From the NCBI GenBank assembly GCA_947629355.1, contig CANRDJ010000001.1, positions 20,585 to 84,584 on the forward strand: a DNA stretch of 64,000 bases. Direction: 5' to 3'. The notes beneath the pieces are model-generated. The model did not search any database and was not told where the DNA came from. It was given only the letters and a program-made list of their open reading frames with translations. Position numbers and translations under genes: made by a program. Positions 32,353 to 33,716 of this stretch are shown here, one piece after another. Within the stretch, counting starts at the first letter, position 1. Every line of letters starts with the position of its first letter. Source of the stretch: an uncultured Clostridia bacterium (GTDB taxonomy: Bacteria > Bacillota > Clostridia > TANB77 > CAG-508).

Positions 32353-32967
32353 ATGTTAGATGAATTAGATAATTTAATTAACTTTATACAAACTGAATAT
32401 ATTAAATTAACTCAAAAATGGGAGAGAAGTAGTCTTTATATTAGAACCAATTTAAAGACTAATTTAGTTTGTGATTTACCAGATAATAAACCAATACTTG
32501 ATTCAATTGTTAATTATAGAGAGTTTATAAATCAAAATAATATTCAGTTAGTATTTAATTTATTGCGTTTTAATACTAAAACTATAAAAATTTATTTTAG
32601 AACAAAGGCAAAAAATTCTATTGAACTTAAAATTAATAATTATATAAAAAATCATGAGAATGGAAAAGTTCCAATTAGTAAATGTTTTAATGATTTATTT
32701 GGAATCAGAATAATTAGTACAGAAAAATTAACTTTTGATATGGTTTCTAATCTTATTAAAACTAAATATAGTAATTTGAAATGTATAGATTCATCTAATA
32801 ATGGATATAAAGCCACACATATATATTTTAGAAATGGAAAGTATGCTTTTCAATGGGAATTGCAGGTCTGGAATAAGTGTGATGAAATAAATAATATTAT
32901 TTCACATGAGATATACAAACAAGATTACATTAAATGGGAAATTGAAAATAAAGGAGATAAAAAATAA
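32353..32967 (+). CDS. RelA/SpoT-homologue synthetase-domain protein (small alarmone synthetase-like; candidate toxSAS toxin)
   Basis: All four RSH synthetase motifs are present: RTKAKNSIELKI (GRxKxxxSxxxK), NDLFGIRIIS (DxxGxRI), NGYKATHIYF (GYxSxH), FQWELQVW (E-Q). 204 aa, no hydrolase or regulatory domains. Confidence 0.7.
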   Translation: MLDELDNLINFIQTEYIKLTQKWERSSLYIRTNLKTNLVCDLPDNKPILDSIVNYREFINQNNIQLVFNLLRFNTKTIKIYFRTKAKNSIELKINNYIKNHENGKVPISKCFNDLFGIRIISTEKLTFDMVSNLIKTKYSNLKCIDSSNNGYKATHIYFRNGKYAFQWELQVWNKCDEINNIISHEIYKQDYIKWEIENKGDKK

Positions 32968-33716
32968 TGGTTACACATTTTATATTTATGAGTAGTTCAT
33001 ATAATTTAGGTACAAGAATTGCTTTAGACTTTATTGTTTCTTCGCAAAAAGATATGCAGCATAAGCTTAAAGAAACACTAGATAAAATTATTGCCGAATG
33101 TGGAAATGATGTATCTATTTCAACACATATGATACAAGCAGAAGATACAGACTGGGAATCAGTTTGTAAATCTGACCACTTTTTTAGAAATGTTATAGTT
33201 ATAAAAAACATTAATGTTTTTATAGAAATTATAAAAAAAGATAGGAGTTTGGAAGGCATTGATATTGCAAAATATATACTTTCAAAAATAAAATGTACAC
33301 AATTAAAGTTACAAAAATTATTATACTTATGTTTTGCTGATTATTTGTGTGATACCGACAAAAAATTATTTGAAGATAAAATATATGCTTTTAAGTATGG
33401 ACCAGTTATTAATACAGTCTATAAAAAATATAAAAAATATAAATATAACCTTATAGATGAGAAAAAGTATGATATAGATTCTACTGTTTCAGAAATGCCA
33501 GCAAAAAGTAGAATTTTATTTGCTAAAGATGGTACAGAAAAAATAATTAGTATAGATAATACTTTAAAAAAATATGGTAATTTGAGTGCAACACAATTAG
33601 TAGACTTAACTCATAGAAAAAATACTCCATGGAGTGTAACTCCTAAAAGTAAATTTACAAATTCTATAATAGAACTAGAAATTATTAAACAGTATCATAA
33701 ATATGAAACACCATAA
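32967..33716 (+). CDS. Panacea/DUF4065-domain protein (PanA-like antitoxin candidate)
   Basis: Translationally coupled (TAATG overlap). C-terminal half LQKLLYLCFADYL...FKYGPVINTVYKKYKKY...LSATQLVDLTHRKNTPW matches the DUF4065/Panacea signature. Confidence 0.65.
   Translation: MVTHFIFMSSSYNLGTRIALDFIVSSQKDMQHKLKETLDKIIAECGNDVSISTHMIQAEDTDWESVCKSDHFFRNVIVIKNINVFIEIIKKDRSLEGIDIAKYILSKIKCTQLKLQKLLYLCFADYLCDTDKKLFEDKIYAFKYGPVINTVYKKYKKYKYNLIDEKKYDIDSTVSEMPAKSRILFAKDGTEKIISIDNTLKKYGNLSATQLVDLTHRKNTPWSVTPKSKFTNSIIELEIIKQYHKYETP

Follow-up and report, generated by a model that had tools for sequence, protein, structure and literature searches.

We analysed a 64-kb stretch of DNA from an uncultured Clostridia bacterium (hereafter the window, meaning the whole stretch), in which two overlapping genes, ORF1 and ORF2, form a cassette between leuS and a convergent purL. 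The features of the cassette, in window coordinates, are:

32209–32247, forward strand: intrinsic terminator hairpin of leuS (17-bp perfect stem and T-run), the upstream edge of the cassette
32265–32293, forward strand: predicted distal promoter P1 (TTGACA, 17-nt spacer, TAAAAT; 11 of 12 consensus matches)
32276–32287, forward strand: GAACATTTGTTC palindrome in the P1 spacer, a putative LexA (Cheo) box with the exact Firmicute consensus
32305–32332, forward strand: predicted proximal promoter P2 (ACACAAAA block, then an extended −10, TGATATAAT, at 32324–32332)
32337–32342, forward strand: Shine–Dalgarno sequence of ORF1 (AAGGGA)
32353–32967, forward strand: ORF1 (204 aa), a toxSAS (PhRel2-like) protein; residues 1–71 form an N-terminal two-helix extension
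32584–32949, forward strand: toxSYNTH catalytic core of ORF1 (residues ~78–199)
32952–32969, forward strand: translational coupling junction of ORF1 and ORF2 (AGGAG Shine–Dalgarno sequence, TAATG stop/start overlap)
32967–33716, forward strand: ORF2 (249 aa), a full PAD1–Panacea antitoxin (PanA)
32967–33251, forward strand: PAD1-like N-terminal domain of ORF2 (residues 1–95), predicted to have a toxin-neutralising pseudo-zinc-finger fold
33309–33632, forward strand: Panacea (DUF4065) domain of ORF2 (residues 115–222; Pfam PF13274)
33727–33821: palindrome of 47 + 47 nt, the downstream edge of the cassette

Both genes lie at the coordinates given in an earlier note on this DNA and share one base, within TAATG, and the Shine–Dalgarno sequence of ORF2 (AGGAG) is embedded in the 3′ end of ORF1. 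The downstream palindrome, which is 91% complementary and has T-runs on either strand as well as GGGGACAGACCCC cores, is a bidirectional terminator that separates ORF2 from purL. This is the repeat element that the earlier note called a REPIN; the element exists, but the label in its strict sense is putative. An MNT/HEPN-like pair described as a neighbour is likewise present (29082–29775), although it is located on the other side of leuS from the cassette. The MNT protein of that pair (29082–29396) gave the sole PADLOC match, to candidate systems (PDC-S09).

ORF1 is a single-domain protein that consists of a RelA_SpoT region and the two-helix N-terminal extension, with neither hydrolase nor regulatory C-terminal domains. 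The four RelA/SpoT homologue (RSH) synthetase motifs reported previously are present, although two had been quoted with minor inaccuracies (GRxK is FRTK, and GYxSxH is GYKATH); the conserved positions read R83-x-K85-xxx-S89-xxx-K93, D114-xx-G117-x-R119-I, G151-Y152-K-A-T-H156, E169-L-Q171 and H185-xx-Y188-K189. All catalytic motifs are invariant among 29 homologues, including the G-loop tyrosine (Y152) that is required for toxicity. Three analyses agreed that ORF1 is a synthetase-only RSH protein, as had been proposed—the Pfam RelA_SpoT match (E = 1.7e-5; 25.5 bits, slightly below the gathering score of 27), a search of the PDB with the ORF1 family profile (sole match FaRel2, a toxSAS that pyrophosphorylates tRNA; E = 2.4e-6) and a Foldseek comparison of the AF2 model (pLDDT 83), in which FaRel2 ranked first, followed by RelP/RelQ, CapRel and Rel. 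With the single sequence, FaRel2 was recovered from the PDB at E ~ 1e-3 over the core region only; no RelQ or RelP chain was found at E ≤ 1 in the PDB sequence searches, CapRel gave no sequence match there, and PADLOC and NCBIfam assigned no family to ORF1. A look-up of the exact protein sequences likewise yielded no name for either ORF1 or ORF2. Judged from sequence similarity, the nearest named relative appears to be gp31 of phage Lily (35% identity over 92% of the length; BLASTP E = 2e-25), which has been named PhRel2 (PMC11782079); PhRel (Mycobacterium phage) was absent from the ORF1 matches among 28 phage records. [quoted passage not shown] Given that ORF1 shares only ~35% identity with validated PhRel2 relatives and that the PhRel2 placement was made by pairwise similarity, the gut clade of ORF1 could be a sister subfamily of PhRel2 with a different substrate.

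The C-terminal Panacea domain that the earlier note had recognized in ORF2 was recovered with confidence (SocA_Panacea, PF13274, residues 115–222; E = 4.3e-19; score 69.9 bits, cutoff 25.7), but the N-terminal domain of ~95 aa had been overlooked. ORF2 is colinear from Met1 with gp32 of phage Lily and gp13 of phage GBSV1 (34–37% identity), both of which are likewise 249 aa long, and residues 1–100 align with the PAD1 region of these proteins; among the histidines of this region, H4 and H54 show no variation and H71 is almost invariant. The fold of the N-terminal domain matches that of ATfaRel2 (pseudo-zinc-finger type). Sequence searches of the PDB with ORF2, both single and profile, gave nothing even at E ≤ 10, and no solved Panacea relative was detectable. 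In B. subtilis Ia1a, PAD1 alone neutralises PhRel2 through direct toxin binding (PMC10440598), and neutralisation in the B. subtilis system is achieved by PAD1 and not by Panacea (PMC10440598, PMC11782079). We predict that PAD1 of ORF2 blocks the ATP donor site of ORF1, and the Panacea domain may be an accessory module, possibly a sensory one. The partners of PAD1-PanA proteins are almost exclusively toxSAS proteins encoded upstream of the antitoxin (PMC8832971), a rule that ORF1:ORF2 fits in both partner and gene order. Two other assignments of ORF2 were rejected. It is not a SocA equivalog (NCBIfam score of 86.8 bits, far below the cutoff of 190), its partner being an RSH protein rather than SocB. 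PAD1 as a DNA-binding autoregulator, the initial guess in the literature (PMC8832971), was discarded because later work showed that PAD1 binds the toxin (PMC10440598) and because the fold is ATfaRel2-like.

The identity of the antitoxin also bears on the substrate of ORF1. A protein of the same architecture might be a (pp)pApp synthetase similar to FaRel or Tas1, which would kill through ATP drain rather than tRNA modification. The catalytic motifs occur in every RSH synthetase and give no information on the substrate, and identity to the tRNA modifiers is low (35% to Lily PhRel2 and, in structural alignments, 17–20% to FaRel2). However, the best sequence and fold matches of ORF1 are the tRNA-modifying FaRel2 and PhRel2, the N-terminal domain of ORF2 resembles ATfaRel2 and, in a published analysis, pZFD/PAD1-type antitoxins go with tRNA-targeting toxSAS proteins, whereas for (pp)pApp producers the antidote is a hydrolase or a Tis1-like domain (PMC11782079). 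We consider (pp)pApp synthesis by ORF1 improbable.

The translationally coupled arrangement is strictly conserved: an ORF2 homologue is found directly downstream of the toxin gene, adjacent or overlapping, in 80 of 80 loci (species-level genomes), and the genes overlap (mostly through TAATG or ATGA) or lie within ~20 nt of each other in nearly all of them. The cassette occurs in very AT-rich Clostridia and Bacilli of the gut, a large group that is uncultured; besides the 80 species-level genomes, the family there counts 394 cluster representatives for the toxin and 607 for the antitoxin. The 80 loci include 59 intact pairs and 17–20 orphaned antitoxins; in 17–20 of 79, a deletion or a frameshift has removed or disrupted the toxin gene next to an intact antitoxin gene. 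This distribution bears on whether ORF1 is a housekeeping (p)ppGpp synthetase of the RelQ/RelP type, with ORF2 as a mere regulator or an unrelated neighbour. RelP and RelQ are among the Foldseek matches (E ~ 1e-5), the precomputed Pfam annotation of ORF1 homologues is generic RelA_SpoT (weak or faint) and phage relatives carry a GTP pyrophosphokinase-like annotation, all of which would suit such a role. Nevertheless, the PDB sequence match at E ≤ 1 is FaRel2 and not RelQ or RelP, the gene is accessory with a context that differs in each species, the PanA partner is obligate, and the toxin gene has decayed in about one quarter of the species whereas its partner persists. A housekeeping role is thus very improbable, and the annotation ‘(p)ppGpp synthetase’ should be avoided for ORF1.

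The cassette is poorer in GC than its flanking genes (19–25% versus 30–36%), and its housekeeping neighbourhood varies from species to species. These two properties, together with the terminators at its borders, indicate that the cassette moves as a self-contained two-gene unit. Synteny did not recover an empty site—leuS was also found upstream in only one other locus (L001), with a different downstream flank.

Prophage origin was tried and rejected on the basis of housekeeping neighbours, both in the window and in the contexts from two further species, and of the limited identity (≤41%) of relatives on viral contigs; the close gut-Clostridia clade is itself absent from viral contigs (best viral match, 41%). 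Phage-encoded members of the family exist for both genes (PHROGs), and one reading holds that the main role of the pair is abortive-infection phage defence, with Panacea and/or PAD1 sensing a phage product and freeing the toxin, much as capsid protein is sensed by the pseudo-zinc-finger domain of CapRel(SJ46), a fused toxSAS. An SOS-linked promoter would also suit prophage induction or phage-inflicted DNA damage. However, neither ORF1 nor ORF2 matched PADLOC-DB v2 at E ≤ 1, the window and six further contexts contained no defence or prophage neighbours other than the MNT/HEPN pair beyond leuS, the cited papers describe no defence phenotype for any PAD1-PanA:PhRel2 pair, and the frequent loss of the toxin is just as compatible with a selfish or addiction lifestyle. 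A main role in phage defence is therefore possible but rather doubtful, and we treat the ‘defence module’ label that the pair had been given as a hypothesis.

Two conserved promoters probably drive the operon. In an upstream alignment of 15 loci, the TTGACA element and the box of P1 are conserved and P2 forms the second conserved block; P2, with its extended −10, may provide basal expression. The P1 palindrome is a GAAC-N4-GTT(C/T) LexA-type motif that overlaps promoter elements, as in the Firmicute LexA regulon, and matches the validated LexA operators of Clostridioides difficile, which read AGAACAAATGTTT (PMC4234289). Exact GAAC-N4-GTTC occurs once in the window, at P1 (0.25 expected by chance), and TTGACA-5nt-RAAC-N4-GTTY was found at 25 of 57 loci, the background rate being 0.027 per 250 nt. 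In L036, L039 and L040, which belong to a more distant clade, CGAAAAAATGTTC sits beside the −35. We searched the fetched loci for lexA and recA using sequences of B. subtilis LexA and Escherichia coli RecA as probes; two related MAGs have similar boxes in the spacer of the recA promoter, and the single lexA promoter found (in L037) has no clear box. On this sequence evidence, the P1 box suggests SOS control of the cassette.

The palindrome might alternatively be an operator for autoregulation by the toxin–antitoxin complex or for another repressor. Autoregulation is usual in type II toxin–antitoxin operons and the palindrome travels along with the cassette; moreover, because AAAC in place of GAAC half-sites is common in the boxes of relatives and the lexA promoter of L037 lacks a clear box, the palindrome could bind another regulator. 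By contrast, ORF2 has no recognisable DNA-binding domain (Pfam and NCBIfam) and PAD1 has a toxin-binding fold (PMC10440598), and the exact Firmicute consensus, the recA promoter spacers, the C. difficile operators and the motif of the distant clade all argue for LexA. We regard an operator of this other kind as conceivable but somewhat unlikely. The LexA reading of the palindrome is supported but not settled, given that two recA promoters have similar boxes and one lexA promoter does not.

Taken together, the locus is likely to be a chromosomal type II toxin–antitoxin cassette of the PhRel2-toxSAS:PAD1-Panacea kind, an account drawn from sequence comparison and prediction; the profile, structure and context tests all favoured the original reading of the pair as toxin and antitoxin. 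ORF2 is translated by coupling right after ORF1 and would bind it. Owing to the LexA box in the P1 spacer, P1 output probably rises in the SOS response. A wider proposal is that P1 is derepressed when damaged DNA, an induced prophage or an attacking phage leads to LexA cleavage and that orphaned PanA proteins have a toxin-independent role, in anti-addiction or sensing; we advance this only tentatively. An SOS-type transcriptional trigger has no mention for toxSAS systems in the cited literature; if the wiring is true, a toxin that pyrophosphorylates tRNA would be triggered at the level of transcription, and the conserved LexA-type box is a concrete candidate for a transcriptional input to a toxSAS:PanA system. 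The cassette extends a well-studied toxin–antitoxin family to uncultured AT-rich gut Clostridia and Bacilli, in the form of a free-standing mobile unit, and its intact pairs and orphaned antitoxins constitute a natural set for asking what Panacea does without the toxin. The picture of how toxSAS:PanA systems work is unchanged by ORF1:ORF2.

The pairing type is already known. Modules of toxSAS and PanA have been validated experimentally in B. subtilis Ia1a and Lactobacillus animalis (PMC7229694, PMC8832971), and because toxSAS:PAD1-PanA pairs were validated earlier, we assign ORF1:ORF2 to this described kind, to which it adds a gut-Clostridia case. Experiments on PhRel2:PanA pairs have demonstrated a toxic effect and its neutralisation by the cognate partner, as well as complex formation, arrest of translation and pyrophosphorylation of tRNA (PMC7229694, PMC8832971, PMC10440598, PMC11559606). 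As in the pairs of B. subtilis Ia1a (PhRel2:PanA, the antitoxin also being termed ATphRel2) and L. animalis, a synthetase-only RSH toxin is combined with an antitoxin that contains DUF4065/Panacea and PAD1; we infer the link to these two pairs through phage Lily and the literature. The pairs of the Paenibacillus larvae phage Lily (gp31/gp32) and the Geobacillus phage GBSV1 (gp12/gp13) share the toxin-first order and the PAD1 and Panacea domains of the antitoxin, and their toxins are 35–37% identical to ORF1, the N-terminal helical extension included. Unlike these phage-borne pairs, ORF1:ORF2 is a solitary chromosomal cassette, its toxin is shorter (204 aa compared with 224–241), and its promoter spacer contains an RAAC-N4-GTTY box that is absent from those of the Lily and GBSV1 upstream regions.

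More distant systems share individual elements. In FaRel2:ATfaRel2 of Coprobacillus sp. D7 (PDB 8pu1, 8pu3 and 8pu4), the antitoxin is a stand-alone protein of 74 aa that lacks Panacea, and the toxin falls in a separate toxSAS subfamily that has a tRNA specificity of its own (PMC11559606); no similarity to residues 1 to ~80 of ORF1 is detectable in FaRel2. CapRel(SJ46) (PDB 7ztb), which has a proven role in capsid-sensing phage defence (PMC9712102), resembles ORF1:ORF2 in its toxSYNTH fold (Foldseek E ~ 1e-4) and in having a pseudo-zinc-finger domain as the neutralising part, but is one fused polypeptide without Panacea. SocA, the type VI antitoxin and ClpXP adaptor of Caulobacter, has the Panacea/DUF4065 domain in common with ORF2; PanA proteins neutralise their toxins through direct binding, and the proteases tested were dispensable (PMC8832971).

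ORF1 and ORF2 lie between the terminator of leuS and a long palindrome, in a coupled operon of two genes that has predicted promoters and a terminator of its own:

32209–32247, leuS terminator hairpin, upstream edge of the ORF1–ORF2 stretch
32265–32293, distal predicted promoter P1 (TTGACA, 17-nt spacer, TAAAAT)
32305–32312 and 32324–32332, proximal predicted promoter P2 (conserved ACACAAAA block and extended −10 TGATATAAT, respectively)
32353–32967, + strand, ORF1, putative toxin gene (204 aa)
32967–33716, + strand, ORF2, putative antitoxin gene (249 aa)
33727–33821, palindrome of 95 nt (47+47 nt), downstream edge, after ORF2

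The two frames share one base at a TAATG junction, and the Shine–Dalgarno sequence of ORF2 (AGGAG) sits within the final codons of ORF1; re-reading the sequence returned exactly the coordinates and overlap given in the earlier note. The stretch is more AT-rich than its flanks, with a GC content of 19–25% against 30–36% in leuS and purL.

ORF1 is a RelA/SpoT homologue (RSH) that carries only a synthetase domain and is predicted to be of the toxic kind (toxic small alarmone synthetase, toxSAS). Its sole Pfam match was RelA_SpoT (residues 83–190, E=1.7e-5), whose 25.5 bits fall just short of the gathering score (27). Searching 5.8 billion proteins yielded 394 relatives; in an alignment of 29 of these (63–95% identical), the catalytic residues were all invariant (R83/K85/S89/K93, D114/G117/R119, G-loop Y152 and H156, E169/Q171, and H185/Y188/K189), and the RSH active site is intact. 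Compared by sequence with solved structures, the family profile matched only FaRel2 (8pu1, 8pu3 and 8pu4; E=2.4e-6), a tRNA-pyrophosphorylating toxin, and Foldseek with the AlphaFold2 model (pLDDT 83) also ranked FaRel2 first, followed by RelP/RelQ, CapRel, Rel and SpoT synthetase domains. Among annotated phages, Lily gp31 (Paenibacillus phage, annotated 'GTP pyrophosphokinase-like'; BLASTP E=2e-25) and GBSV1 gp12 (Geobacillus phage) were 35–37% identical to ORF1 over ~90% of its length. Given these matches, the naming of the Lily protein as a PhRel2 toxSAS (PMC11782079) and the absence of Mycobacterium phage (PhRel) or CapRel matches in the sequence searches, ORF1 is provisionally placed with PhRel2. 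Streptococcus phage Javan5 and relatives (L083:1702–3058) carry a toxSAS homologue (~28% identical to ORF1) that adjoins an integrase and lies 3′ of a CI-like repressor gene across a 1-nt gap; no Panacea gene was present beside it, and this arrangement may represent another antitoxin solution or a repressor–antitoxin fusion.

ORF2 is, by sequence, a two-domain PanA antitoxin that combines PanA-associated domain 1 (PAD1) with Panacea. SocA_Panacea (PF13274) matches residues 115–222 (Pfam, E=4.3e-19), as the earlier note had recognized, although the note had missed the N-terminal PAD1 half. SocA itself was ruled out, given an NCBIfam SocA equivalog score (86.8) far below the cutoff (190). Starting at Met1, full-length alignments were obtained between ORF2 and both Lily gp32 (34%) and GBSV1 gp13 (37%); each of these phage proteins is likewise 249 aa and encoded directly 3′ of a toxSAS gene. 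PAD1 is the N-terminal domain of some PanAs and has conserved histidines; the partners of PAD1-PanAs are almost only toxSASs, with the toxin gene always upstream (PMC8832971). It adopts a pseudo-zinc-finger fold, as in ATfaRel2 and the CapRel C-terminal domain, and PAD1 alone neutralizes PhRel2 of B. subtilis Ia1a, Panacea being dispensable for neutralization and a proposed sensor (PMC10440598, PMC11782079). Residues 1–95 of ORF2 fit this description: they were modelled as a beta-beta-alpha-beta-alpha-beta-alpha unit (pLDDT 77–91), and all of 35 aligned homologues keep H4, C45 and H54. The Panacea half was modelled poorly (pLDDT <50 at residues 133–194), and no solved structure was detectable with ORF2 by sequence.

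Comparison across species (one genome per GTDB species; 80 loci) indicates that the pair is a toxin–antitoxin unit. An ORF2 homologue lies directly downstream, colinear from residue 1, in 80/80 loci, and the toxin stop and antitoxin start mostly overlap or are at most ~20 nt apart. The loci come nearly all from uncultured gut MAGs (Clostridia, Bacilli, Lachnospiraceae and Oscillospiraceae from rabbit, human, goat and other guts), with one Bacillus isolate. Only the closest relative, L001 (95% identical), shares the upstream leuS, and its downstream flank differs; other cassettes follow a sporulation sigma factor gene or have an ABC transporter gene on one side and feoB on the other, a distribution that shows mobility between genomic contexts. 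In the contexts examined the cassette was never among phage genes, and viral contigs held only relatives of ≤41% identity. In 17–20 of 79 assessable species the toxSAS gene survives only as a 3′ remnant or has an internal deletion or a frameshift, and there the antitoxin ORF remains full length (246–252 aa); at least 12 of these cases are outright 5′ deletions as opposed to possible assembly frameshifts. Such orphan PAD1-PanA genes (L035, L058, L068–L071, L074–L080 and others; for example, L080:6001–6812) are preceded only by the last 20–150 toxSAS codons or by a frameshifted copy. A decayed toxin gene beside a retained antitoxin is the pattern expected when the gene product is harmful, and one hard to square with a housekeeping alarmone synthetase; the orphan genes also hint that PanA persists for reasons unrelated to its own toxin.

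Upstream of ORF1, two blocks are conserved across species, separated by DNA that varies in sequence and length. The P1 spacer holds GAACATTTGTTC, the sole exact GAAC-N4-GTTC in the 64-kb window (chance expectation, 0.25), which is the form of the B. subtilis LexA box. TTGACA-5nt-RAAC-N4-GTTY occurs in 25 of the 57 loci with enough upstream sequence (background, 0.027 per 250 nt) and in 23/31 loci of the clade with >55% identity. Validated LexA operators of C. difficile read AGAACAAATGTTT (PMC4234289). In a more distant cassette clade, CGAAAAAATGTTC adjoins the −35. Two recA promoters from related uncultured Clostridia (L059:7860–8125 and L014:2691–2950, reverse strand) carry AAACAATTGTTT and/or AAACAAAAGTTC in or adjoining the promoter spacer, suggesting that a LexA motif in this very AT-rich clade can have AAAC half-sites. 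We infer with moderate confidence that P1 is under SOS control. Alternatively, the palindrome may be the cassette's own operator rather than a LexA site; the sole lexA promoter found (L037) lacked a clear LexA-type box. At P2, ~12 nt separate the ACACAAAA block from the downstream extended −10 in the window and aligned loci, and in several loci the block forms with the −10 region an inverted repeat (TCACA...TGTGA); the block may be a second operator.

Several neighbouring features were also observed. Just upstream of leuS (28062–29775) are a short-chain dehydrogenase gene and an MNT/HEPN-like pair (Polbeta/NTP_transf_2 and NTase_sub_bind, HI0074 family), the MNT protein matching PADLOC candidate system PDC-S09. 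None of the three genes had a tblastn match anywhere in L001 (0/3), where a patatin-gene homologue and leuS are ~600 nt apart; leuS is thus flanked on both sides by accessory toxin–antitoxin-type cassettes. Downstream, one additional C inside gcttCggaatatgtaatgg (junction ~34294–34306) splits the large purL gene (FGAM synthase; 33816–37608, − strand) exactly at the glutaminase nucleophile motif (LGICNGFQ expected, LRNM-stop found), leaving reading frames of 1104 and 140 aa. Because six independent assemblies from different samples carry the identical split, it is a real frameshift or pseudogene rather than an assembly error. Hairpins with a GGGGACAGACCCC core and A/T-run flanks occur three times: intergenically (12363–12381), as the palindrome after ORF2 (33727–33821) and inside the purL frame (~35680–35725). 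The purL copy is translated in frame (...QKRGQTPFLPK...) and would look like a terminator-like palindrome that has inserted within a gene.

By homology and published PhRel2, FaRel2 and PanA work, ORF1 would transfer pyrophosphate from ATP onto the 3′-CCA adenosine of uncharged tRNAs and arrest translation; the PAD1 of ORF2 would bind the toxin over its ATP donor site, with Panacea as a putative accessory or sensory domain. The promoter motifs suggest that LexA represses P1. PADLOC returned no match for ORF1 or ORF2.

An RSH synthetase, a Panacea partner and a conserved coupled pair bear out the earlier toxSAS–Panacea toxin–antitoxin interpretation, although it lacked PAD1 and left unstated that the pairing is established. 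Such toxSAS:PanA pairs were validated experimentally in 2020–2023, and PAD1-PanA has been described as the antitoxin most widely found with PhRel2-type toxins (PMC10440598). As the locus agrees with the toxSAS:PAD1-PanA class in every feature that can be assessed from sequence, we regard it as a member of this known class and not as a new system. Three observations are modestly new: a large gut-Clostridia clade not named before, conservation of the LexA-type promoter, and the frequency, a high one, with which antitoxins are orphaned.
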